DNA from: Escherichia coli
GTDB taxonomy: Bacteria; Pseudomonadota; Gammaproteobacteria; Enterobacterales; Enterobacteriaceae
Length of the DNA stretch: 64,000 nucleotides
Reading direction: 5' to 3' (one strand)
Assembly: GCF_016903815.1 (NCBI RefSeq)
Contig: NZ_CP069972.1
Below are positions 16,191-49,346 of this stretch, piece after piece. How positions within the stretch are numbered: position 1 is the first letter of the stretch; every line of letters starts with the position of its first letter. Under the pieces are notes generated by a model. The model was not told the DNA's origin, searched no databases, and saw nothing but the letters and a program-made list of their open reading frames with translations. The position numbers and the translations under genes are program-made.

Positions 16191-16523
16191 TCAACCTTCC
16201 ATTAACTGTTTACGCAATGTATTTGTAAGTTCGGTTATGGCAACAAGCACTTCTGCGTATTCCTTGTCACCGGTTCTTTTTCCCTGAACAAACAGATGCT
16301 TCTGCATCCTTCCCAGTCTCATTAACTCCTTCAGAAAAGCATCATCTGTCCGGGAGTTAATTCGCTTATTCAGTGCTGCATTTCGGATGTAAGCAGATAC
16401 AGTAAGTCCGGAATCTTCAGCATTCTTACAGATAGTTTCATCCTCATCCGGTGAGAACCGGACCGCTCTCAGGATCGTCTTTTGCCGTCTTTCACTACCA
16501 CTTCTTTGACGTTTATCACTCAC
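16191..16523 (-). CDS. nikA: oriT-binding relaxosome accessory protein NikA (RHH, 110 aa)
   Basis: GTG start after AAGGAG; 110-aa product VSDKRQRSGSERRQKTILRAVRFSPDEDE... typical RHH Mob accessory protein; precedes nikB. Confidence 0.8.
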   Translation of the reverse strand: MSDKRQRSGSERRQKTILRAVRFSPDEDETICKNAEDSGLTVSAYIRNAALNKRINSRTDDAFLKELMRLGRMQKHLFVQGKRTGDKEYAEVLVAITELTNTLRKQLMEG

Positions 16524-16540
16524 GGTCAGCTCCTTACTGG

Positions 16541-16625
16541 GGTGTCGGGGCGAAGCCCTGACCAGGAGGCAATTGTATAATCGCGCGTGCGCGGTTATAC
16601 AATTGCACATCCTGTCCCGTTTTTC
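16541..16625 (+). other. oriT: Origin of transfer (oriT) with predicted nick site
   Basis: Perfect 10-bp inverted repeat AATTGTATAA/TTATACAATT (16571-16604) followed 10 bp later by ATCCTG^T (nick predicted 16614/16615) resembling the IncP nic motif; leading genes then point toward this site. Confidence 0.65.
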
Positions 16626-16755
16626 AGTCCATTATAGCCTGTTATTTTTGTGCATCATAGTCTTATGCAGACGGCAGAGGCAGGGCGCAGCCCTGCCAGG
16701 AGTCAGTTTTTGATGATAAAATCAGGCTTCAACATTAAACGGAGAGAAAGTGCCA

Positions 16756-17091
16756 ATGGCGTCTAAAAAATTTTACTCAGATGATGACATCCAGCTGGCA
16801 AAAGCTGCTTTATCGGAATTGCCAGACCTCACCGCTCAACGGAAAACATTGCGTGATTTTCTTGATGCCATTCGTGATGACATCATTATCCTGGTAAGGA
16901 CAAAGGGTTATACACTGACAGATGTTCGTGACACGCTCAAAAATGCAGGATATGAAGTAGGAGAGAAAGCACTTCGTGACATTATTCGGGAAGCAGAATC
17001 GAAAAAACCATCCCGCCGTTCTTCCTCTAAAACAGCACCTAAAAAGACAGACTCAGGCAGGAAAGATGGCATCGATATGAACAACAATTGA
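16756..17091 (+). CDS. Hypothetical protein adjacent to oriT (112 aa)
   Basis: ATG at 16756 after GGAGAGA; basic Ser/Lys-rich C-terminal tail; unusually on the + strand for a leading-region gene. Confidence 0.4.
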   Translation: MASKKFYSDDDIQLAKAALSELPDLTAQRKTLRDFLDAIRDDIIILVRTKGYTLTDVRDTLKNAGYEVGEKALRDIIREAESKKPSRRSSSKTAPKKTDSGRKDGIDMNNN

Positions 17092-17176
17092 TGTGACAAT
17101 GTCACATTGTGTTCTGAGATTATGATGATTACAGAAAAAAAAGCCCCGGCATAAATACCTGGGCTTTTCTGTTTAA

Positions 17177-18025
17177 TCAGACTCGTGGCGGCAATGCACC
17201 AGGATAATGCCGTGCAATAATATCATTCAGTTTTTCAACAAGGTCAGAACGCTTAAAGACAATGTGTACGGTCCCTTTCTGGTAGCCACGCACCGTAAAA
17301 TATTCCCCTTCTAACAGCTTACCGACATTGTCACCGTTCCCGAGAAATTCACCATACTGCGCCCCGATGCTGTTCCTGAAGTCAGGAACGTTGCGCCCCT
17401 CCAGCAGATAAAACGGACGTACCAGGTCATCCAGTGCCTCCCGTCCGCTGCAGTCCAGCGTCACACGCCCGTTACTCCAGCGGTACAGTAGGTTTTCAAT
17501 AATTATTTTCTTACCCAGACGGCAGGGATTATTGGTTCTGTAATCCCATGACAATTTCCGGTAGACATCAATCAGCCCCTGTTCAAACGTCTGCATCTTG
17601 CTGGCATTAAGATGGCGGAATGTTGCCAGTACATTGTCCAGGGTGATTTCAGGACAGGTGTCGCTCATCAGCTGGCTGTTCCACTCATCACGCTGGCATG
17701 AACTCATGAAGGTGTACATGCCCGTATCTGTCATCAGGCGGTCCCAGATTTTCCGGTCGGCAAGACGGGTGATATTCCTTTTCGCTTCTTCCGTCTTATC
17801 CATGCGACGAACGGAATCAGTCACGCAGTCTTCAAACCCGTAAAGAAAAATATCACCTGACGCATCGAGCAGAATCTTGCGCGCTGTCGCCAGGCATTCC
17901 ATCGCCTGCATGAACAGTGCAATACCTTCGTTACGCTGCGCGATGATGCGGTCGATAGCTACAGACGGAATAACATCTGTCGTGCCGGCAGTATTCAGGT
18001 CAGCAGTGGGTAAAGTCTGATTCAT
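17177..18025 (-). CDS. Leading-region protein of unknown function (282 aa), first gene behind repeat copy A
   Basis: ATG at 18025 with SD GGAGA; large hairpin repeat immediately upstream; no recognised motif. Confidence 0.55.
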   Translation of the reverse strand: MNQTLPTADLNTAGTTDVIPSVAIDRIIAQRNEGIALFMQAMECLATARKILLDASGDIFLYGFEDCVTDSVRRMDKTEEAKRNITRLADRKIWDRLMTDTGMYTFMSSCQRDEWNSQLMSDTCPEITLDNVLATFRHLNASKMQTFEQGLIDVYRKLSWDYRTNNPCRLGKKIIIENLLYRWSNGRVTLDCSGREALDDLVRPFYLLEGRNVPDFRNSIGAQYGEFLGNGDNVGKLLEGEYFTVRGYQKGTVHIVFKRSDLVEKLNDIIARHYPGALPPRV

Positions 18026-18075
18026 CACATTGTCTCCTCATCGTCACGACTGCCGGGTCAGCCAGGTCATTTCCC

Positions 18076-18386
18076 GGAGGAGCGAAGCTCCTTCTGCCGT
18101 CCGGGTCTTCGGGGATTTCCCCGCAGTGGACCTTTCCGACGGGGGACGCTCACCACGTCACGGGGCAGTTGTCCGGGGGCAGACGCAAAAGTTTTTGACG
18201 CCTGCGGCAAAAAGTTTTGTGGCTGGTACATCTCTCCCCTGGACGACTGAAACGGGATGTGGTCATGTATGTACCCCCGGAAAGTCCGTCTGCGGAGAAC
18301 AGGCCGCAGTGCGGCGGCAGACAGGCAGAGACAGCTGCGCCATCAGGCGCAGTGGCCTTACACACCGTAAGGTGTGCAGGGAGCGC
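18076..18386 (-). promoter_or_regulatory. Family-1 hairpin repeat, copy A (ssDNA-promoter-like, Frpo/ssi-type)
   Basis: Shares about 300 bp with 21469-21964 and 27812-28310, including inverted arms CCCCGCAGTGGACCTTTCC / GGAAAGTCC(A/G)...GGGG and TTGACGC...GCGGCAAAAAGTTTTGTGG. Confidence 0.6.
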
Positions 18387-18501
18387 CGCATACGGCGCGA
18401 CTGAAGAAAAACGACGGCACAACAATGGCATGTGGTGGTCACTGGCACACCACTCCCGCACAGGTGAAAACAGAGAAAACCGCACGACATTTACAACCAA
18501 A

Positions 18502-18594
18502 AAAAGTGAAATTTCTTCACTTTTTCACGCTTATTTTTCGCGTTGATTTGGTGATTATGATGATAAAATAAAGTGAAATTTTTTCACTTTTTCA
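18502..18594. promoter_or_regulatory. Two palindromic operator-like sites overlapping the promoter of the XRE gene
   Basis: AAAAAGTGAA-N5-TTCACTTTTT (18502-18526) and AAAGTGAA-N6-TTCACTTTTT (about 18570-18594) about 70 bp apart, the second abutting the ATG at 18605. Confidence 0.5.
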
Positions 18595-18604
18595 AAGGTG
18601 TTTT

Positions 18605-18856
18605 ATGACCGGCTGGGAACTGCGAATCTGGCGAAAAAGCATGCTCTGGTCACGCGAAAAAGCGGCCAGAGAATTTGGCGTGACGCAGAGAACATGGCAC
18701 GCCTGGGAAAATGCGGAACAGGTGGACGTCACCGTCTGGAGGACCACCCAGGCACTTTCAGTCCGTGACCTGCTGCCTCACATGCAGGGGATGCGTAAGG
18801 CAGATATCATCAGGCGACTGGAAAATGAACTGGGGGAAACGGCAGGGAATGTGTGA
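18605..18856 (+). CDS. Small XRE/Cro-like HTH regulator (83 aa)
   Basis: HTH-like segment WSREKAAREFGVTQRTWHAWE; preceded by paired palindromes; convergent with the Rpn operon. Confidence 0.5.
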   Translation: MTGWELRIWRKSMLWSREKAAREFGVTQRTWHAWENAEQVDVTVWRTTQALSVRDLLPHMQGMRKADIIRRLENELGETAGNV

Positions 18857-18886
18857 GCGTGATTCACAGCCTGGCTGAATGCCAGG

Positions 18887-19069
18887 CTACTGCTCATCAG
18901 GAAACAGCTTTTTCAGTTCTTCACCGGAAAGTCCCGTGACCTCCTGAATCCGTTCCAGCGGCCAGCCTATATCCCGAAGCCGGCAGGCTATTTCCCGCGC
19001 CACTTCAAGAGCCCCTTGTTTAAAACCCTCGTCGAAACCTTTCTGTATAAGACGTTCTGCAATCGTCAT
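18887..19069 (-). CDS. Stand-alone RpnS-like small protein (60 aa), homolog of the Rpn C-terminal domain
   Basis: MTIAERLIQKGFDEGFKQGALEVAREIACRL...TGLSGEELKK aligns with the last 65 aa of the adjacent Rpn; own SD AGGAG; the longer 81-aa ORF would be encoded through the rpn terminator hairpin. Confidence 0.5.
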   Translation of the reverse strand: MTIAERLIQKGFDEGFKQGALEVAREIACRLRDIGWPLERIQEVTGLSGEELKKLFPDEQ

Positions 19070-19092
19070 GCTGTTTGCTCTGCTCCTGCTGA

Positions 19093-19119
19093 CAAAAAAG
19101 CCCGGCATTTTGCCGGGCT
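19093..19119 (-). terminator. Intrinsic terminator after rpn
   Basis: Minus-strand hairpin AGCCCGGC-loop-GCCGGGCT followed by U6. Confidence 0.5.
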
Positions 19120-19131
19120 TTGTGGTTCTCA

Positions 19132-19329
19132 TCAGTGAGTGATTTTCTTCAGTTCGTCATCGGAAAGTCCGGTAGCCTGCTTAATCTGCTCCGGCGTCAT
19201 CCCCATTTTCTGAAGCTGGCACGCAATAGCCAGGGCTTTTTCAAGCGCTCCTTCCATGCGTCCTTCCATGCGTCCTTCCATCCTGCCTTCCTGGCGACCT
19301 TTTTGCTCAAGACGTTCTGCGATAGTCAT
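19132..19329 (-). CDS. Possible intragenic RpnS-like ORF (in-frame internal start, 65 aa)
   Basis: In-frame ATG at 19329 preceded by GAGGAT at -6 to -11 (CATGAGGATAAACTGATG); product corresponds to the Rpn C-terminal domain. Confidence 0.3.
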   Translation of the reverse strand: MTIAERLEQKGRQEGRMEGRMEGRMEGALEKALAIACQLQKMGMTPEQIKQATGLSDDELKKITH

Positions 19330-20058
19330 CAGTTTATCCTCATGCTGCGGCAGACGCTCAGCCAGCGCCCGCATAAATTCCGGTGATACAGAGTCCCCTG
19401 CGTTAACGATGTAATGAATCAGAACACGCACCTGCTCGTCTGAAATTTCCACCATGACCTGCGGGAGTTTGTCCAGCAGCTCCATCATGTCACGATGGCG
19501 GATATGCTTCATCAGCAGCGTCAGTGCGGCCATCCGGCGATGGTTCATGATTTCATTGTCATCAACGACAGTGATATCAACCAGCGGAAACGGCTTTGTG
19601 TATATTTTAGCCGCAAGTGCCGGATTCTCAAAACAGTCCAGCCAGTTCATGCTGTACGGGTACGGGCTGCGCTCACCGTGATAGAACAGCACCGGAATCA
19701 CCAGTGGCAACGTTTTGTGCTGCTCCAGATGTCTCTGCATCGCCGCCACACTGTAGCGTAACATGCGAAAAGGCATGTACAGATTTTCTGTGCTCTGGTG
19801 CTCGATGAGCGTATAAACATAACCATCTTCACCCCCGGTGGTTTTCACGCTCCAGAGGATATCGCTGGCGTACTGATGCAGGTCCGGCTCAACAAAGGTG
19901 GCGGGTTCCAGCTTCAGCGTGGACAGGTCGCACAACTGCCGGTACTCCGCAGGAAGATGCAGTTCCAGAAAATCCCTGGCAACGTCGGGATTCGCCAGGA
20001 ACGACCGGAACGCGGCATCATGCGGCGTGGGCGTTGTGGTGTTTTTCTTCTTACTCAC
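19132..20058 (-). CDS. Rpn family recombination-promoting nuclease (YhgA-like, PDDEXK), 308 aa
   Basis: YhgA-like N-terminal region (LIEHQS...) and conserved C-terminal domain (IAERLEQKG...TGLSDDELKK); GTG start overlapping the stop of the upstream ORF. Confidence 0.6.
   Translation of the reverse strand: MSKKKNTTTPTPHDAAFRSFLANPDVARDFLELHLPAEYRQLCDLSTLKLEPATFVEPDLHQYASDILWSVKTTGGEDGYVYTLIEHQSTENLYMPFRMLRYSVAAMQRHLEQHKTLPLVIPVLFYHGERSPYPYSMNWLDCFENPALAAKIYTKPFPLVDITVVDDNEIMNHRRMAALTLLMKHIRHRDMMELLDKLPQVMVEISDEQVRVLIHYIVNAGDSVSPEFMRALAERLPQHEDKLMTIAERLEQKGRQEGRMEGRMEGRMEGALEKALAIACQLQKMGMTPEQIKQATGLSDDELKKITH
19249..19284. repeat. 12-bp tandem repeat x3 inside rpn (encodes EGRMEGRMEGRM)
   Basis: TCCTTCCATGCG repeated twice plus variant TCCTTCCATCCT; in frame. 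Confidence 0.6.
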
Positions 20059-20444
20059 GGTTCCTCCATCAAATCAGCAGCATCGCAGCAATCATCGCCC
20101 AAATCCCCACAACCGAGAGGACAGCAATTGCGTTCAAAGCCATGACAACAATAGCCGCGTTCTGAGTCACGGCGTATTTCTTCAGCAATCTCTTCTGCGG
20201 AAAGGTAATCAAACTCCTCACGGGCCAGTTCCAGGACCAGTAGATGTTGTTCTGTCGGCAATGTGGCCACAAAATTATCAATAGCAGCACTCAAACGTCG
20301 CTGATATAGCTCATAAACAAGACCACAACGGGGCATTAGTTCTTCGGATAATAGTTCCAGTTTTGAGCGAATTCTGTCAGCGTTGAAAGTGACTTCATCA
20401 AAAGACATATGAAAAGCTTTGTCAGTATCAAAACAAGACTTCAT
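20055..20444 (-). CDS. Hypothetical protein with Cys-rich acidic C-terminus (129 aa), coupled to rpn
   Basis: ATG at 20444 with SD GGAGA; C-terminal CCHGFERNCCPLGCGDLGDDCCD; stop TGA overlaps rpn GTG start (GTGA). Confidence 0.45.
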   Translation of the reverse strand: MKSCFDTDKAFHMSFDEVTFNADRIRSKLELLSEELMPRCGLVYELYQRRLSAAIDNFVATLPTEQHLLVLELAREEFDYLSAEEIAEEIRRDSERGYCCHGFERNCCPLGCGDLGDDCCDAADLMEEP

Positions 20445-20620
20445 TGTTATCTCCAGCCCTCCCGGGCCCTGAATGAAAGAGAATCTGTTTCCCTTTTCTG
20501 TTTTTTGTGGAGACACCATGCAACACAGACGTCGTGATGTTTTTCATCTTGCTCACGGTTCCTCCTGGTAAAGTACCTGAACACATCCTGCCACCTGCAC
20601 AGGCAGACGGCAGGGGTTAA

Positions 20621-20887
20621 TCAGTGACAGACCCGTTCAATTTCAAGCGCGCGGAGCAGGTGGCCCCATTCGCTGACTTTCATGGCGGGGATACGTACCC
20701 GCTTCTGCTCACTGCAGCGTCTGGCGATATGACCGCCCATCGCCAGGACGTCCGGGTTAATCTCATCCGGTGCCAGTTCCTGGCGTCTGAAGCGGGTATG
20801 GCGGTGCAGGGGTTTGTTCTCCCGCAGGCACTCTTCACGCAGACGCTTTACATACTCGGCGGTTGCGAAGATAATTGATGGTCTCAT
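20621..20887 (-). CDS. Hypothetical leading-region protein (88 aa)
   Basis: ATG at 20887 with GGAG 9 nt upstream; basic protein; no recognised domain. Confidence 0.4.
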   Translation of the reverse strand: MRPSIIFATAEYVKRLREECLRENKPLHRHTRFRRQELAPDEINPDVLAMGGHIARRCSEQKRVRIPAMKVSEWGHLLRALEIERVCH

Positions 20888-20979
20888 GGCATAATCTCCA
20901 TAGTTAGTGAATGAGATGCCGGACTTCCGTACGGGGAAGCGCCAGCGGAGAAAGGCAGGGTTTATCGCCCTGCTTTTTT

Positions 20980-21414
20980 TCATTCCGGACAGCGACGCAG
21001 TGCCAGCGCGAGCGCTTTCATCTTCCAGCCTTCCGGCGTGCGGTACATCACCTTCCAGTAGCCGTCGATGAACACATAATGGAAGCGCACCTCTTCAGTG
21101 CTTTCCGTGGCGATGGCCTCCCTGAAAGAACGGTACTCACGCGCCTCACTGTCCATCCGGAAACCACTGTCACGTCCGTAATAAGCCGTCACACCGTCCA
21201 CCGGGTTCTGAAGCGTATGCCCGGCGGGTTTGTCGCAACGGGGACCGAGGCAACGGATATCACCGTGTTCAACCAGGGCTTCGGCCTGCTGACCGGTGGC
21301 ATAGTGGGTATGCAGGATGCGACCGTTCCAGGTCGGCTCACCGTGCAGGTGGCAGTAAACGGTACGGAACACCCCGTCGCGGCAAAAAACGGAAATCGTG
21401 CTGCTGACTGTCAT
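20980..21414 (-). CDS. Hypothetical leading-region protein (144 aa) behind repeat copy B
   Basis: ATG at 21414 with SD GGAGA; the longer 251-aa ORF in the track reads through the GC-rich repeat and is rejected. Confidence 0.5.
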   Translation of the reverse strand: MTVSSTISVFCRDGVFRTVYCHLHGEPTWNGRILHTHYATGQQAEALVEHGDIRCLGPRCDKPAGHTLQNPVDGVTAYYGRDSGFRMDSEAREYRSFREAIATESTEEVRFHYVFIDGYWKVMYRTPEGWKMKALALALRRCPE

Positions 21415-21468
21415 GAAAACGTCTCCTTCTGCTGAATCAGGTCGCCGGGCCGACCGGTTGCTCCCCCG

Positions 21469-21964
21469 GAGGGGCGAAAGCCCCTTCTGCCGTCCACTTC
21501 TTCGGGGTTTCTCCCCGCAGTGGACCTTTCCGATGGGGCAGCGACTGCCACGGCACGGGGCAGTTGTCCGGGGGCAGACGCAAAAGTTTTTGACGCTTGC
21601 GGCAAAAAGTTTTGTGGCTGGTACATCTCTCCCCTGGACGGCTGAAACGTGTTGTGGCCGCTTCAGCCCCCGGAAAGTCCACAGCGGGGAAACAGGCCGC
21701 AGGGGGGGCGGCGGAAGGGCAGACAACTGCGCCATCAGGCGCAGTTTCCTTACACACCGTCAGGTGTGCAGGGAGCGCAGGTCACGGCGCGACAGAGGCG
21801 GCGCGACCGGAACGGTCGCTGCAAGCCTGGTTTTTCAGACATCGGACCGTAGCGGCAGCCCGAAACCGCGCCAGCGGGTTCGGCGGAGACTGGCGGGTGC
21901 GCCAGCAGCTGCCTGTCGGAGTCGGGCCTGACGACCGGATGCCGCCAGGCAGCCGGGAGCCGAA
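21469..21964 (-). promoter_or_regulatory. Family-1 hairpin repeat, copy B
   Basis: About 500 bp shared with copy C and about 300 bp with copy A; long imperfect inverted repeats. Confidence 0.6.
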
Positions 21965-22146
21965 GGGTGTCCCCGCCCCCGGGAGTCAGAACAACAGAAA
22001 CGACAAAACAGAAAAATGCCTCACACTATGACAGGCAGGAAGGGTAGCGCCGCAGGCGCGGCCCTCCTGTATTTCAGGCAGGCGTAAGCCTGCCAGGGTT
22101 TTCCGGGGGCCTGGCAGGCCATCCCCCCGCCGGAGCGGGGAGTAAA

Positions 22147-22647
22147 TCACCGACGGAACACATGACCGTCAATAAAGGTGAAGGAGTCCAGGAATAAATC
22201 CCGCGCATACGCCTCATAGTCAAAATAGAGCGCCACCGTCTCCGGCACGTCAGCCAGCAGGCCGGTATCACTGACGAACTCAACCGCAAAAGCCTCCTCA
22301 CTGTCAGCCTCGCCCCACCAGGCATCGCGGAAGCTGTCAAAATCCGTCTCACCGGTATCATCCACCCAGAGACGATAAGCCTCTTCGCAGCCTTCATCCC
22401 GCGCCTGGCGGAAGCCTTCAACCCAGGCCCAGTTGATATGGCATTCAGAGGCCATATTCCCCGGGAATCCCTCATAATCCTGAAACATCAGTTCCGGGTC
22501 GGTTTCATCCTGGTGAAGGGCACGGCAGGCGGCGAAAAAGTCGCGTTCATCATCAAACGTTGTCAGGTCAAACCAGCGGCCAGCGATGCTTCCACAGTTG
22601 TATTTGTGCCAGGTTCCAACGTATACAGCAGGTGCAACAACAGACAT
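22147..22647 (-). CDS. ardA: Antirestriction protein ArdA (166 aa)
   Basis: MSVVAPAVYVGTWHKYNCGSIAGRWFDLTTFDDE...; acidic; SD GGAGGA; matches ColIb-P9 ArdA (recollection). Confidence 0.85.
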   Translation of the reverse strand: MSVVAPAVYVGTWHKYNCGSIAGRWFDLTTFDDERDFFAACRALHQDETDPELMFQDYEGFPGNMASECHINWAWVEGFRQARDEGCEEAYRLWVDDTGETDFDSFRDAWWGEADSEEAFAVEFVSDTGLLADVPETVALYFDYEAYARDLFLDSFTFIDGHVFRR

Positions 22648-22659
22648 TCCCGAATCCTC

Positions 22660-22992
22660 CATAGTCACATGTTCTGCGACACCGGGCGGTGCCGTGCCTC
22701 CATCTTTGCCGGGCCTGCAGGGATGCAAGGGCGCAAGGGAAGCCGCAGCCCGACGCACACGGCTGGCGGGAGTTGGAGGGTGAGACCGCGAAATCTGAGC
22801 GGGTGAACGACCGGAAAATCACGGCAGACGGGAAGGAGGGACCGGGTGACCGCAGCGGTTCATCTTACCTTGCATCCCGCCCGCAGAAGCCCGGCTACGA
22901 TGGAGGCACGGCACAGCCCGCACACGACACGGCGGCCACATAACTGAAAACCCACAAGGCCATGCCCCGCATGGCCGGGTAAAAGCGGAGCC
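22660..22992 (-). promoter_or_regulatory. Family-2 hairpin repeat, copy 1 (upstream of ardA)
   Basis: About 330 bp nearly identical to 31955-32286; about 45-nt inverted arms (GTGCCGTGCCTCCATC...GATGGAGGCACGGCAC) separated by about 150 nt. Confidence 0.6.
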
Positions 22993-23108
22993 GGCGGCGA
23001 CGTCCTTATTCCGGCGAGAGCAGGGAGCACACCGCATGATCTCCAGACCACCCCTGGAACGAAACGATCATGACCGGCATGTCCCTGCGTAAAATATACA
23101 TGCCTGGT

Positions 23109-34906: not shown

Positions 34907-35833
34907 TCATCCGCCATAATGCGCCACATTGTCGATTATCCACGCAGGTCCGGTGACTTCCGGCAGCTCATCATCATCTGTCGGGGAAGACCATTCCAGT
35001 TCCCCCCACAGCACATCAACGAGCTCTCCGCGCTCATACAACTGCCAGCCACAGAAATTGCAGCCCTGTTCGGCGTACCAGTGCTCCAGCGTGCAGCCGA
35101 AACGGCGGCTTAATTCTGCAACAACGTCGCTTTCCGGCTGACACCACGGCGTGTCGAAATCTACCTGAATGAAGTTTTCCCCCTGACTGCTGATATTCAG
35201 GTCATACCCACAAGGCCACTTCACGCCATACCGTTCTGTATACCAGTGATATGCAGAAGGAACACCGTTCAGAACACCGCCGTTAAAGCCATTCACTTCA
35301 ATATCCAGGCGGGTCGGCAAAACCGTCAGCAGGTCAAACGGCATGGTTTTTTCCGGCAGTACGTTGTCACACAGACGGTTCCACCACACCGATACATCCT
35401 CGTTACCCCAGATGTCACACCAGTCACCTCTTTTTGCGGTGAAATGCACAGTGATAGTTTCCCTGACATCATCCGGTAACTCTTCCCAGCGACGCTGTCC
35501 AGTACCGCTCTGCAGCCAGAGTTCATGCAGCATCAGGCAGTTTTGCTCATCCAGCAGTACACCGTTCTGCAGGTGTGTCAGCCAGCGGGTGAACGCGATA
35601 TTTTCCGGTGATACAGCACCACGTCCGGCAGCCGTCACTCCGGGGCACTGCTCAGAGCGGATATTTTCAGTGATCTGCAGAAGTCCGGCACTTCCGGCCA
35701 GAAACAGCTGAATACCTTCATTTGTGGCGCGGCGATAAAGCGGTGTAACTGCACCGCTGGCCAGTCGTTTAATCTCAGCGATCTGTGCCGGTTCACCAGA
35801 AAAATACATACGATTCGAGCACCAGTTTGGCAT
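34907..35833 (-). CDS. Hypothetical leading-region protein (308 aa)
   Basis: ATG at 35833 with SD GGAG 8 nt upstream; Trp/Cys-rich; no recognised domain. Confidence 0.5.
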   Translation of the reverse strand: MPNWCSNRMYFSGEPAQIAEIKRLASGAVTPLYRRATNEGIQLFLAGSAGLLQITENIRSEQCPGVTAAGRGAVSPENIAFTRWLTHLQNGVLLDEQNCLMLHELWLQSGTGQRRWEELPDDVRETITVHFTAKRGDWCDIWGNEDVSVWWNRLCDNVLPEKTMPFDLLTVLPTRLDIEVNGFNGGVLNGVPSAYHWYTERYGVKWPCGYDLNISSQGENFIQVDFDTPWCQPESDVVAELSRRFGCTLEHWYAEQGCNFCGWQLYERGELVDVLWGELEWSSPTDDDELPEVTGPAWIIDNVAHYGG

Positions 35834-45295: not shown

Positions 45296-45805
45296 ATGAG
45301 TAAATCAGGTGCAGAAAAAATTCAATTCATCCTGAATAATCATGAACAGGCATACAGACGCCTGAAGCCTGTATATACTTTTTTAGAACTGGCATCTTGG
45401 ATTTCGGTTGTTCTGCTGATTATATACCTATCAGGCAAGAATCACGTGCTTACAGCAGCTTTTCTCTGCTTTGCATGGACAGCATTCTGGGTTCTTTTCC
45501 TTTTACATTATTTCCCAAAAGTTTTCTTTATTCTCGATCGTCAGAGTCTGCTCAACCTCATGGAGGCCACCAAAGACTCACCAGATGTAAAGCAGGAGCT
45601 GCTTAACCGCCTTTTTTCCGGAAAAAGAATGACCGGGCGGGATGAAATGGATATCTGCCGTCTTCTGAGAAAAAATGAAGAAGAAAAAATCCGTCAGAGT
45701 GAACTGAATATCATCAGGAATTTTATTGATGAACAGCAGTTAACGAATAGTGATATTCCGAAGAAAAGTACGGTTCCAAATGAAGATAAAAAAGGCATAA
45801 GATGA
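45296..45805 (+). CDS. Hypothetical membrane protein (169 aa)
   Basis: Two N-terminal TM helices, charged C-terminal tail. Confidence 0.4.
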   Translation: MSKSGAEKIQFILNNHEQAYRRLKPVYTFLELASWISVVLLIIYLSGKNHVLTAAFLCFAWTAFWVLFLLHYFPKVFFILDRQSLLNLMEATKDSPDVKQELLNRLFSGKRMTGRDEMDICRLLRKNEEEKIRQSELNIIRNFIDEQQLTNSDIPKKSTVPNEDKKGIR

Positions 45806-46499
45806 TATGAAATTAATAACCAGGCAAGCAGAGGATGGCGTGGTTTCATCCTAAGATTGATAGGGGTTAACCTGTAAGATAAAAGGACCGTGTTTACACG
45901 ACGTCTCTGAAGGGCTTCGTTTGGGAAACGGACAATATCTAACTGACGAGGAAATTAAATAAGGGTTTAAAAATTAACGCACCATATATTATACACAGTA
46001 TATAACGATTCAGATATCGTCACCAGGATATGCCGCGTCAGCGGCATGGAAGGCGGCACGCTGTGGTTACATGTGATACCGGAGTAAAACCGCCGAAGCC
46101 CGGCGTAAGCCGGTACGGATTGATAGATTTCACCTTACCCATCCCCAGCCCTGCTAGACCATACCCGTTTTCAGTCATGACAGAGCTTCTGTGCGCGGTC
46201 GGAGTGGTCCCGACAAGGGTTTACCCGCAGTCGGGGCGTATCTCCGCGTTAGCGGGCCGTAAGGGCCGCTTACGAGCGTGTACTGAGGACTTCCAGCCAG
46301 AAGACTGGCAGCGATGACAATGTAGTTACAACATTCATAATTAAAAGCGATGTTGTTCCCGCCCTTTGGGCGGGGGCGGCCTCGCTTTTCAGTTATGAGG
46401 GGTGGGCACGGTGCTGCGTTTGTGTGGTGTTTTTATTCCTGATGTTTTTTTGTTGTGGTTTCAGAACGGTGAGGTTCGGGGCCCGCGCGTCAGCGTGGG

Positions 46500-46870
46500 A
46501 GGTGCTTTTAGATTCTGAGCGGCGCGGCCTTGGCCGCTGCAAGCGAAGGCCTCTTTGTATTTGTTCACAGTGGTCTCAGAGATAAAGATTTTCCCTGCGG
46601 CGAAGCAACGCAGGGGATTAAATAATGGGGTTAAGACTATATTGCAGGTTTGCTGTTTCAGGTTTGCAGCTTCTTAAAGTTCTTTGTTTGCGGATTTATG
46701 TGGATAACTGAAACAACGTGGCCATGTTCTGATGACTGATGCGTGGTTTTATGGGCAGATATGCCCCTCTGAGGGGATTTAAGGTGACTACTAAGGATTT
46801 TGGGCTGAGCGGAATCTGCGCCGAAAGCCCCGGAGGGGCTGGCGATGATTCAGTGCTGAGGGAATGATGC
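46500..46870 (-). other. Replication origin region (oriV and CIS-like sequence) downstream of repZ
   Basis: Perfect DnaA box TTATCCACA (reverse complement at 46699-46707) about 170 bp downstream of repZ stop; GC-rich hairpins. Confidence 0.55.
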
Positions 46871-46873
46871 TGT

Positions 46874-47905
46874 CTAGTGCGGTGGCGGGGCAGCCAGCGT
46901 CAGTTCAAGCTGACGCAACTCCCTGATGGCCAGTCGCTTCAGATGGTCATCGGAACAGAAATAGGCTTCATCCGGCGGCAGACGCTTCCGGAGATGCTCA
47001 GCCATCTCATAAATCTGCTGGTCAACAGGTAATTTCTTCAGGCGGTTGGCACGCTTGCTGGCTGCGGCTTTTTCTCGGCGCTTCTTCAGGGCATCCTGGC
47101 TGCGCTGCAGATACCAGCGTTTTCTGGCCGCATGAACGGAGATATCTTCATCCTCACGCAGAACACCTTCCCGAATGAGCTGCTGGCGGATTTCACTTTC
47201 ACGCAGTCGTTTCTGCTGCTGTTCGTGAAGTTTTACCATGTCGACGCCCAGCATCTGCCAGCCTGCCGGTGTTATCCAGACGTAACGTGGCAGACGCTGA
47301 CGATGTTCACGGTCCCACATTGTTTCCTCTGACACACCCAGCACACCAAAGCGCACCTGTTCGGCCAGCAGACGGGAAAGACGGGAGACCGTCACTTCCA
47401 GTTCCGGAATAACATGTCCCTCGCTGTCTTTCGGGCTGATTTCTTCAGCCAGCCGAGTGACGCTCATCCCCACGGTATGTGTGCCGGCATCACTGAAGCT
47501 GACCAGAACCGGCCAGATGGCATCGAGGAGACGTTGTTTTTCCGGCCGGAAAGCGTATTTGCGACCGACGAACGTCCGTTTCTGTACATAAAAAGGATGC
47601 CGCGACATGCGCATGCGCAGGCTCTGCTCGCCGGTCACCGGGTCCTTTTTCACCAGACGGTTATAGGCGTGCCCAAGCTGCCCTTTCAGCGCTTTATAGC
47701 GCTCAGGACGATACCAGGACGGATTTTCGCATTTGGGTTTGGTGGAGTGCTCACCGCGACGGCGCTTCGTGCGCTTCCTTTCCGGTTCAACCAGGAAAGT
47801 GGTCGCCCTTCCCGCTTCATAGTCTTCCCAGAAACGGATCTGCTCTTCGGGTGCTAACTGACTCCAGTGTACTGCGTTATATGGAGTATTCTTCAGACCT
47901 GCCAC
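46874..47905 (-). CDS. repZ: Replication initiator RepZ (343 aa, GTG start coupled to repY)
   Basis: GTG at 47905 lies 7 nt before the repY stop; 343 aa as ColIb-P9 RepZ (recollection); the 358-aa track ORF starts at an upstream GTG. Confidence 0.8.
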   Translation of the reverse strand: MAGLKNTPYNAVHWSQLAPEEQIRFWEDYEAGRATTFLVEPERKRTKRRRGEHSTKPKCENPSWYRPERYKALKGQLGHAYNRLVKKDPVTGEQSLRMRMSRHPFYVQKRTFVGRKYAFRPEKQRLLDAIWPVLVSFSDAGTHTVGMSVTRLAEEISPKDSEGHVIPELEVTVSRLSRLLAEQVRFGVLGVSEETMWDREHRQRLPRYVWITPAGWQMLGVDMVKLHEQQQKRLRESEIRQQLIREGVLREDEDISVHAARKRWYLQRSQDALKKRREKAAASKRANRLKKLPVDQQIYEMAEHLRKRLPPDEAYFCSDDHLKRLAIRELRQLELTLAAPPPH

Positions 47906-47982
47906 AAGCTGTCGCTTATGGCGGAGCGATTGTGCCGTGTATTTATACACTGCACAGGGTTGAATCTCTGGTACGGTTTCAT
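47893..47982 (-). CDS. repY: Leader peptide RepY (29 aa)
   Basis: ATG at 47982 to TGA at 47893 encodes MKPYQRFNPVQCINTRHNRSAISDSLWQV; stop overlaps repZ start region. Confidence 0.65.
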   Translation of the reverse strand: MKPYQRFNPVQCINTRHNRSAISDSLWQV

Positions 47983-47994
47983 TATACTTTACCC

Positions 47995-48070
47995 GTATTC
48001 TGTGAGGCCCCCACTATCTTTCGTCGTTCCGCCAAGTTCGTAAGAAAGATAGTGGGGGTTTTCCTTTTAT
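47995..48070 (+). ncRNA. inc: Inc antisense RNA (about 70 nt) of the repZ replicon
   Basis: Promoter TTGAAT-17-TATACT (47960-47988); 15-bp stem CCCCCACTATCTTTC/GAAAGATAGTGGGGG with loop containing CGCCAA, then T-run; antisense to repZ leader. Confidence 0.6.
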
Positions 48071-49058
48071 GGCTTCCGGAACATCTTCAGTCTTCTGACT
48101 TACTGCCCGTACATGCCATCTCTCCTGAATGCCTTATGGCGCATTCTGCCGTCCGGCTTTCGCCGCTTTGCTCCACAGAGTGCCACCCTCTGCACAGCTA
48201 ATAACAGCCGAAATATACCCGCTTTACGTTAATTTGAAAAGCATTACAACGATCTCTTCTCTTCCAGTGCCTCCTCACTGATACCTCTAATAAGTTAATC
48301 TTGACCTGCGTCAAAAAAATAAAATCTATTTTTAAAAGCAGATTTTTCTGCTTTAGATCTTTCTTTTGGATTAAAAGATCGACTTTTGTCCTACTCACGA
48401 TCATTTATCTTACAACCGATCTACCTAACAGAATAATATTCTGTTTTAATGCAATTAAACGATCTAAATAACCTTTAAAAAATCATTTTGTAGATCATTC
48501 GATCGTAAATAGAATAATTCTTAGATGATAAAACCATTTGTTACACAACCCGCCAATTGTGTAACAACAGCCTCTACAAGAGCATATTTGTTCATATGTT
48601 CGTCAGAACTGCGGATTGTCTGGACGAGGGTCAGACACCGTTTCGTGCATATGGACCAGCATGTTCGAACGCCACAAAGCAGAAGCATCATGCCTGGATC
48701 GCTTCGGCGCGGAGCGTTAAGTTTTGACGCTTTTTTGTATGTTTTTTAAGCTGTTAGTTGACTCGGTGCGTTATACTAAGTACCCTTTACTGGTCACAGG
48801 CAAAACTGTGATCGGGCGTAGGAACCCGCGTAGTCATCGTCGGCGCAGAAGTTAATTTCTTCATTTGGCGTCGTTTTTTGCCATACCATAAAGACAGGAA
48901 CTTGTATTTCTTGTCGTCATCTATGGTAGCTCAGGCGGGGCAGGCATTAGCCTGGCCGGTTTCCGATGACGCCGGTATTCCTACCCCCGTCTGGGCTATC
49001 ACCAATGAGCGTAGGAACTCGGTGATAGCGTTTTTAGTTGTCATCGGAGACCGTTGCT

Positions 49059-49346
49059 ATGTCACCTCAAATGATACAGAAACTCCCGGCCATCACTCTG
49101 TTGGAAGGCATGTTTCCCGAGCTATCAACAAACCAGCTTAAAGTCTGCGTTTTTTACGCAATGGGTGTTCCTTACGACGCCATTGCTCAGAACTGTCGGC
49201 TTTCTCCCGAAACGGTACGAACCTACCTGAAGCGAAGCCTGAAGAACTTAAATCTGGAAGGATATGATGCACTTCGCTCTGCTGTGCTGATGCGAACGTT
49301 CGTTTTCATGATTAGCAATACAGCTAAAGAAAACGAAAAAATGTGA
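49059..49346 (+). CDS. LuxR/GerE-type HTH regulator (95 aa)
   Basis: LSTNQLKVCVFYAMGVPYDAIAQNCRLSPETVRTYLKRSLKNL is a LuxR-type HTH; SD GGAGA; hairpin terminator at 49351-49380. Confidence 0.55.
   Translation: MSPQMIQKLPAITLLEGMFPELSTNQLKVCVFYAMGVPYDAIAQNCRLSPETVRTYLKRSLKNLNLEGYDALRSAVLMRTFVFMISNTAKENEKM

Follow-up and report, generated by a model that had tools for sequence, protein, structure and literature searches.

Introduction

Why does a plasmid in which GATC, the target of Dam methylation, is depleted two-fold (134 sites observed in 64 kb against 257–261 expected) carry eight copies of it crowded into the spacer between its replication initiator gene and its transfer regulators? The question is raised by the 64-kb stretch of Escherichia coli DNA analysed here (from contig NZ_CP069972.1; hereafter the window, meaning the whole stretch), which belongs to an IncI1 plasmid and in which an AT-rich GATC array lies within the 1.15-kb gap separating the repZ module from the transfer-regulator module. 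The initial annotation had placed this cluster between the region upstream of repZ and a LuxR-like gene, a location borne out by the end of the repZ leader at 48066 and the start of traA at 49059, and had seen in it, by analogy with the SeqA/Dam targets of replication origins and of methylation-controlled promoters, a device for the Dam-dependent control of replication timing or of the regulator genes downstream. The answer proposed here, to which a probability of about 40% is assigned, is that Lrp may read the array as a methylation-sensitive platform, SeqA probably binding its hemimethylated form, and that this platform would tune the promoters flanking it.

An array of Dam sites on one face of the helix

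The eight sites, numbered GATC-1 to GATC-8 from left to right (Table 1), are separated from one another by 105, 21, 22, 19, 43, 32 and 8 bp. Their density, eight in 254 bp compared with one per 478 bp across the window, makes of the array the sole place in the 64 kb with at least five GATC per 280 bp, the maximum elsewhere being four. That about one site would be expected by chance in some 280 bp, as previously stated, agrees with dinucleotide-preserving shuffles of positions 48240–48520, which gave 1.3 sites on average and seven at most, none out of 20,000 reaching eight. The G+C content of the array DNA is 24–37%, and 8 of the 29 G residues of 48240–48520 fall within GATC; among the 4-bp palindromes other than GATC, only TTAA is enriched in the same interval. 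The CGATCT and AGATCT contexts already pointed out were found again, the former at 48250, 48417 and 48460 and the latter at 48355, together with AGATCG at 48376; in particular, the context ACGATC(T) is seen at four of the eight array sites versus 19 of the 126 sites elsewhere (p = 0.03).

The arrangement of the sites also follows the helical repeat: their phasing peaks at exactly 10.5 bp (R = 0.875), the top value among periods of 5–40 bp, with p = 0.0014 for the B-DNA range and p = 0.02 when any period is allowed. AA/TT dinucleotides in the same region recur with a period of about 10.3 bp (p = 0.002), and the GATC sites run half a turn out of phase with this periodicity, the remaining G/C positions being unphased. 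Since the GATC are phased, and in antiphase to the A-tracts, the Dam sites lie along one face of curved DNA, with their major grooves all turned to the same side; that the A-tracts alone impose this phasing on them is ruled out by the absence of phasing at the other G/C positions.

Table 1. Coordinates, in window numbering, of the array and of the features surrounding it
Feature	Position	Strand	Remarks
Array of eight GATC (Dam) sites	48251–48504		Starts at 48251, 48356, 48377, 48399, 48418, 48461, 48493 and 48501
GATC-3 (48377), GATC-4 (48399, ACGATC) and GATC-6 (48461, AACGATCTA)	48377–48464		Common to all sampled I-complex lineages
Perfect match to the Lrp consensus	48429–48443	minus	Palindrome CAGAATATTATTCTG, 15/15; between GATC-5 and GATC-6
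Weaker Lrp-like site	48336–48350	plus	13/15; in hairpin AAAGCAGATTTTTCTGCTTT, directly left of GATC-2
Weaker Lrp-like palindrome	48510–48524	minus	TAGAATAATTCTTAG, 12/15; directly right of GATC-8; repeat D10
Candidate repZ promoter	48212–48240	minus	TTTTCA-17-TATATT; promoter scan
Putative c4-traA operon promoter	48758–48786	plus	TTGACT-17-TACCCT; left edge of Hft
Candidate rightward promoter	48488–48515	plus	TTGTAG-16-TAGAAT; own reading, below scan threshold
FNR-like palindrome	48301–48314		TTGACctgcGTCAA; conserved as TTGAnCTnnnTCAA in clade 2 (IncB/O/K/Z)
Perfect 11-bp inverted repeat	48538–48567	minus	TTGTTACACAA-N8-TTGTGTAACAA; terminator-like; right boundary of the array
c4-type antisense RNA, full length	48919–49006	plus	Inside Hft; Rfam RF01695, 77.5 bits (gathering score 45)
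repZ (annotated RepA), initiator	46874–47905	minus	First gene left of the array
repZ leader pseudoknot and Inc RNA target	47918–48066		Rfam PK-repZ, 194 bits
traA, LuxR-type helix-turn-helix regulator	49059–49346	plus	First gene right of the control region

Other identities of the array were considered and rejected. It cannot be taken for an origin or unwinding element, given that it has no DnaA box, no IHF site and no exact copy of the 13-mer GATCTnTTnTTTT, whose best matches (12/13 and 11/13) are scattered. Nor is it an iteron array, defined as at least three direct repeats of about 17–22 bp with regular spacing, because no long repeats occur in it, only imperfect two-copy repeats of 9–18 nt. 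A structured RNA is ruled out by the Rfam search, which returned one spurious, sub-threshold match to a small nucleolar RNA (snoRNA), and the published Hft locus (see below) lies 265 bp further right.

The likeness to origin clusters on which the initial annotation relied is not sustained either. IncI1 origins are located downstream of repZ, and it is there that a perfect DnaA box is found, at 46699. The replicon core at 45536–47837, comprising the origin region, CIS and nearly all of repZ, contains no GATC in 2.3 kb, in contrast with the crowding of sites immediately upstream of the candidate repZ promoter.

Conservation of the sites among I-complex plasmids

Many E. coli and Shigella IncI1 plasmids match the segment 47900–49400 at 100% identity, and the region is present at 93% identity or more in over 1,400 plasmid records. 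Scanning metagenomes and genomes with a promoter pattern yielded 83 homologous loci; metagenomes proved a productive source, whereas the matches obtained in genome contigs were mostly due to chance (2 of 20 being real). Clade 1, of the IncI1/I-gamma type, comprises 25 unique variants down to 79% identity, and clade 2, of the IncB/O/K/Z type, 32 unique variants.

In clade 1 all eight sites are kept in at least 22 of the 25 variants, some of which are only 91–95% identical. Positions belonging to GATC are markedly less variable than their surroundings: in clade 1, 1 of 32 such positions compared with 38 of 248 others varies in at least two sequences (p = 0.04), and none of 32 versus 29 of 248 in at least three (p = 0.024), while in clade 2 the figures are 3 of 24 versus 107 of 305 for variation of any kind (p = 0.016) and 2 of 24 versus 97 of 305 for variation in two sequences or more (p = 0.009). 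In clade 1, some of the most frequent polymorphisms affect the nucleotides immediately adjacent to GATC-2 and GATC-5.

The plasmids of clade 2 have no traA, and their repA and traB genes are only about 700 bp apart; they hold a cluster of their own, with 6–9 GATC in about 290 bp. The three sites common to all sampled lineages lie 286, 308 and 370 bp from the promoter anchor in clade 1 and 287, 308 and 369 bp from it in clade 2, so that their positions relative to the promoter are kept despite a sequence divergence of about 40%. In the clade alignment all other sites are lineage-specific, which indicates that the remaining GATC were gained independently in each lineage. Most clade 2 plasmids are also phased on the same face (R of 0.86–0.98 at 10.2–10.3 bp). 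The statistics of the cluster and its comparison among relatives thus argue that it is a real array of Dam sites kept by selection. It is apparently specific to the I-complex, since in distant rep_cluster_1444 plasmids with traA-like genes, where a comparable cluster was sought, only weak GATC groups were found (5–6 per 330 bp, or three within 22 bp).

Two further observations concern the evolution of this DNA. At one spot of the array tandem expansions have occurred: ACGATCT is present three times in the L008-type loci of clade 2 (L008, L066 and L072), adding GATC, and AACACTCTAATA three times at the same spot in the lineage designated L076, where GATC was lost. Moreover, a module boundary lies at about 48261–48267; indeed, the Salmonella Infantis megaplasmid pESI (L152, CP052793) matches the window from 48261 onward at 99.4% identity, with GATC-2 to GATC-8 and the tra regulators and without repZ, and the plasmid pSEP (L151, NZ_LR794377) contains the replicon up to 48267, including GATC-1, followed by unrelated DNA.

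Lrp sites, pap-like boxes and the proposed platform

Features overlooked in the initial annotation point to Lrp as the protein reading the array. The window contains a match at every position to the 15-nt consensus YAGHAWATTWTDCTR that Cui and colleagues reportedly derived in 1995 by systematic evolution of ligands by exponential enrichment (SELEX); no second perfect match occurs in the 64 kb, for which the expected number of matches with one mismatch or fewer is 0.66. GATC-5 ends 7 bp before this predicted Lrp site and GATC-6 starts 17 bp beyond it, the weaker 13/15 site lies 93 bp away, and the match is kept at 13/15 in clade 2.

A second clue is the likeness to the pap operon, whose two GATC boxes, 102 bp apart, were read from the fetched papI-papB regulatory region and compared with the sites of the window and of its relatives, the 126 other GATC sites serving as a null (mean identity 12/28, maximum 16). 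The clade 2 site L007_3023, which aligns with GATC-4 of the window, is identical to a pap GATC box at 23 of 28 positions, and another clade 2 site has the 16/16 core ACGATCTTTTATGCTG in common with pap. In the region upstream of traJ in plasmid pSLT, a GATC abuts a 13/15 Lrp-like site.

About 590 bp of divergent control region surround the array, with the candidate repZ promoter on the left and the putative c4-traA promoter on the right. On the proposed reading, Lrp would assemble on the GATC-bearing face of the curved, AT-rich DNA; methylated GATC would hinder Lrp and bound Lrp would in turn shield GATC from Dam, as at pap and at pSLT traJ. Conjugative entry delivers one methylated strand, and just after this event, or after replication, the array would be hemimethylated and, thanks to its same-face spacing of about 20 bp, a good target for SeqA. 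The state of the platform would then tune the flanking promoters, namely those of the transfer regulators and perhaps that of repZ. What the sequences show is the cluster, with its conservation, its phasing, its match to the Lrp consensus and its likeness to pap boxes; we infer the protein binding, its sensitivity to methylation and the identity of the affected promoter alike.

Several known systems resemble the array. The Lrp/Dam/PapI switch of pap, and its relatives sfa, daa, fae and pef, have GATC in 'ACGATCT...' boxes, AT-rich DNA with Lrp sites and divergent promoters, and are matched in these respects by the clade 2 boxes described above and by the strong predicted Lrp site of the window; unlike pap, with its two sites, the window has eight and its relatives 6–9 (the spacing nearest to that of pap being the 105 bp between GATC-1 and GATC-2), and the flanking genes encode a plasmid initiator and transfer regulators rather than fimbriae. 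The upstream activating sequence (UAS) of pSLT traJ, where Lrp and Dam control conjugation according to Camacho and Casadesus 2002 (as cited in PMC5013300), likewise belongs to an enterobacterial plasmid and has, upstream of a conjugation regulator, an Lrp site (a predicted one in the window) next to GATC. The F-like traJ system differs in having a single GATC with a 13/15 site instead of a phased eight-site array with a 15/15 site; the window, for its part, has a LuxR-type TraA, a NusG-type TraB and a c4 RNA, its array adjoins the replicon, and the Lrp/GATC pair lies about 350 bp from the traA-operon promoter, a much larger distance than at traJ. With the SeqA clusters of oriC and the dnaA promoter the array shares its GATC density, the same-face spacing of about 20 bp and the vicinity of a (candidate) initiator promoter; unlike oriC, it has no DnaA box, the origin region of the plasmid is GATC-free, and the initiator is governed by an antisense RNA and a pseudoknot. 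The OxyR/Dam switches (agn43, opvAB, gtr) and the std fimbriae controlled by HdfR, SeqA and Dam also have several GATC in a regulator-binding region, a putative one here, and as in those systems heritable patterns of methylation are conceivable; no OxyR-type sites were seen in the present case, no search having been aimed at them, and the sequence points to Lrp as the regulator instead.

Because of the Lrp and pap-like features, a methylation-pattern switch similar to those of pap and traJ appears at least as likely as a SeqA-based control of replication timing. The Dam-dependent control originally suggested is retained in part: core conservation, lineage-specific gain, same-face spacing and the Lrp and pap features all argue for it, and the analogy with origins is abandoned; both targets named at the time, repZ or the transfer regulators, are possible, since the array flanks the candidate repZ promoter as well as the regulator module.

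A number of facts weigh against an Lrp-read platform. The sites of the window itself show a modest 16–18/28 identity to pap boxes of the 'ACGATCTTTTA' type (the null maximum being 16), strong matches occurring only in the relatives, and tblastn against the 64-kb window retrieved no PapI homologue at better than E = 1.5. The lineage L076 has lost GATC-4 to GATC-7, and the full array is thus not indispensable. The GATC nearest to the traA-operon promoter is about 255 bp from it. The mini-replicons of ColIb-P9 presumably end at the BglII site that coincides with GATC-2, in which case sites 3–8 would be dispensable for replication. At two positions of the array, 48426 and 48442, plasmid R64 (L156, NC_005014) departs from most IncI1 plasmids; the second of these falls inside the Lrp site, which is thereby reduced to 14/15. 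This allele is found in 10 plasmid records, natural isolates included, so that it represents a lineage polymorphism and not a drd11 mutation, and the two substitutions are ruled out as the cause of derepression in R64-drd11. In pESI, deletion of lrp produced no significant change of pilV mRNA (lysogeny broth (LB), microaerobic conditions; PMC5013300), and the transposon insertions found by transposon sequencing (TnSeq) to raise transfer mapped to Hft, not to the array (PMC4288162). Finally, none of the papers that could be searched refers to GATC or Dam, or to SeqA or Lrp, in connection with this part of IncI1 plasmids, and no methylome data on it were found.

A more ambitious version of the same idea would see in the array the sensor by which the IncI-complex monitors Dam methylation or hemimethylation, reset by replication or by conjugative entry and choosing the cells that activate TraA, TraB and TraC; in this extended form the proposal is speculative and quite improbable.

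Alternative explanations

Among the alternatives, the one that fares best attributes the array to SeqA alone: once hemimethylated by replication, it would bind SeqA and transiently occlude the repZ promoter, as occurs at dnaAp2, imposing a refractory period without any involvement of Lrp or of a pattern switch. In vivo and in vitro, SeqA prefers GATC pairs that lie on the same face at intervals of about 10 or 20 bp and of less than 50 bp (PMC2912659, PMC2691817). The array, having eight sites in 254 bp, agrees with these preferences through its same-face spacings of 19–32 bp (21, 22, 19 and 32 bp), and every lineage retains at least one pair separated by about 21 bp. The shared sites hold their distance to the repZ promoter and not to the tra genes, GATC-1 is located 11 bp upstream of the -35 hexamer of that promoter, clade 2 plasmids have a GATC at its predicted start site, and fresh transconjugants contain less repZ mRNA than donors do (PMC12672017). 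SeqA, however, reads only GATC and so accounts neither for the 15/15 Lrp match nor for the pap-like boxes with their identity of 23/28; furthermore, only GATC-1 is within 50 bp of the candidate repZ promoter, most sites being 150–300 bp upstream of it, the origin and the repZ gene are GATC-free, and pESI retains sites 2–8 in the absence of any repZ. In addition, Inc RNA regulates the synthesis of RepZ chiefly at the level of translation, so that a transcriptional pause would have little leverage. Sequestration by SeqA alone is regarded as unlikely.

Methylation might also be irrelevant, the array being a protein-binding or architectural element in which ACGATCT is the motif of some plasmid or host factor, or in which curved upstream DNA is controlled by H-NS or FNR. 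The recurrent ACGATC(T) context, the local triplications at one spot in L008 and L076, the A-tract periodicity and the FNR-like palindrome, combined with the published FNR dependence of pESI, are all compatible with such an element. It is contradicted by the free variation of the flanks of the GATC cores, which themselves do not vary, by the differing flanks of the lineage-specific sites and the lack of long iteron-like repeats, and by the fact that an eightfold coincidence between a non-Dam motif and the Dam site is unexpected in a plasmid that avoids GATC; an explanation of this kind seems improbable.

That the cluster has no function, and simply reflects small duplications and drift within non-coding spacer DNA, could be argued from the occurrence of GATC within short imperfect repeats (D2–D4), from the tandem 7-mer expansion of L008, from the loss of half the sites in one lineage and from the absence of a reported phenotype for transposon insertions in the stretch (PMC4288162), but is very improbable in view of the preferential conservation of the cores in two clades, the independent GATC enrichment on both sides of a deep split, a helical phasing specific to GATC, and promoter-relative positions that persist across about 40% divergence.

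Promoters and other elements of the control region

The promoter at the left of the array likely belongs to repZ, and both of its hexamer blocks are invariant across the clades. The promoter at the right, put forward here for the c4-traA operon, is kept as TTGACT-17-TAGTCT or TAGCCT in distant plasmids, and its assignment fits the published observation that deletion of Hft abolishes the expression of a traA::lacZ fusion (PMC5801416). A third, rightward promoter may be present at the end of the array, with GATC-7 overlapping the end of its -35 hexamer and GATC-8 in its spacer; it aligns with a TTGCCA...TATATT sequence found upstream of traB in clade 2.

Within the array, the FNR-like palindrome recalls the finding that FNR and TraB activate the pilus genes of pESI, FNR acting also on conjugation (PMC5013300); we infer that it may be the FNR site behind this dependence. 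Clade 2 plasmids lack the inverted repeat that closes the array on its right side, and the loop of its minus-strand hairpin contains UUGGCG, the hexanucleotide of the Inc RNA target loop in the repZ leader. On the plus strand, terminator-like hairpins (GGAGCGTTAAGTTTTGACGCTTT followed by a T-run) occur at 48700–48745, just before the putative c4-traA promoter; together with the third promoter, they would delimit, between the array and Hft, a transcript of about 225 nt that has no annotation.

The Hft locus and a c4-type antisense RNA

The "high-frequency transfer" (Hft) or "superspreader" locus was defined at 35394–35663 of pESBL-EA11 (PMC4288162), and corresponds to positions 48769–49036 of the window. 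Both Hft papers make no mention of GATC or Dam. Besides the full-length c4 match given in Table 1, sub-threshold Rfam matches to the C4 a1/b1 targets and to isrK were obtained. The loop of the c4 RNA at 48962–48970 (UCCGAUGAC) is complementary to 49040–49048 (GUCAUCGGA), a segment covering the Shine-Dalgarno sequence of traA, and 48978–48984 is complementary to 49011–49017; both target boxes recur upstream, at 48818–48824 and 48833–48839, an arrangement that is the immI layout of phage P1. Two changes specific to R64-drd11 fall within Hft, one in the c4 stem (48930) and the other 3 nt after the a2 box (49020). Hft thus appears to encode an antisense RNA of the phage P1 c4 type, predicted to mask the ribosome-binding site of traA. 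A literature search found no published link between c4 RNA and IncI1, Poidevin et al. having only suspected small RNAs. Such an RNA would explain the derepression of traA by insertions and point mutations in Hft, and would provide a direct mechanism for the superspreader mutations.

Plasmid setting

To the right of traA, the regulator module continues with traB, of the NusG family, and then traC. Elsewhere in the window, a segment of 6.5 kb at 16473–23038, with a G+C content of 54%, is without any GATC, although the plasmid's own rate would predict about 14 and the base composition about 26. It contains ardA (22147–22758), a DUF4942 gene and a YhgA-like gene, a gene content that identifies it as the leading region, the first to enter the recipient.

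Implications for the spread of I-complex plasmids

IncI1 and the related I-complex plasmids are among the main carriers of resistance genes for extended-spectrum β-lactamases (ESBL) and AmpC in E. coli and Salmonella, and the only cis-regulator mapped in them is Hft, the neighbour of the array. Judged from its sequence, the array would be a further case within the known class of Dam-controlled regulatory regions, and it is carried, as GATC-2 to GATC-8, by the pESI megaplasmids of Salmonella Infantis too. If the array does act as a platform of the kind proposed, the spread of these plasmids would be tied to their replication, to their entry into new cells and to the physiology of the host through Lrp and possibly FNR; were it moreover to work as a sensor choosing the cells that activate the transfer regulators, it would account for the fact that only a small fraction of donors is competent for transfer, as well as for the classical, transient high-frequency transfer of fresh IncI1 transconjugants, and would link transfer to plasmid copy number and, through Lrp, to the nutrient status of the host.

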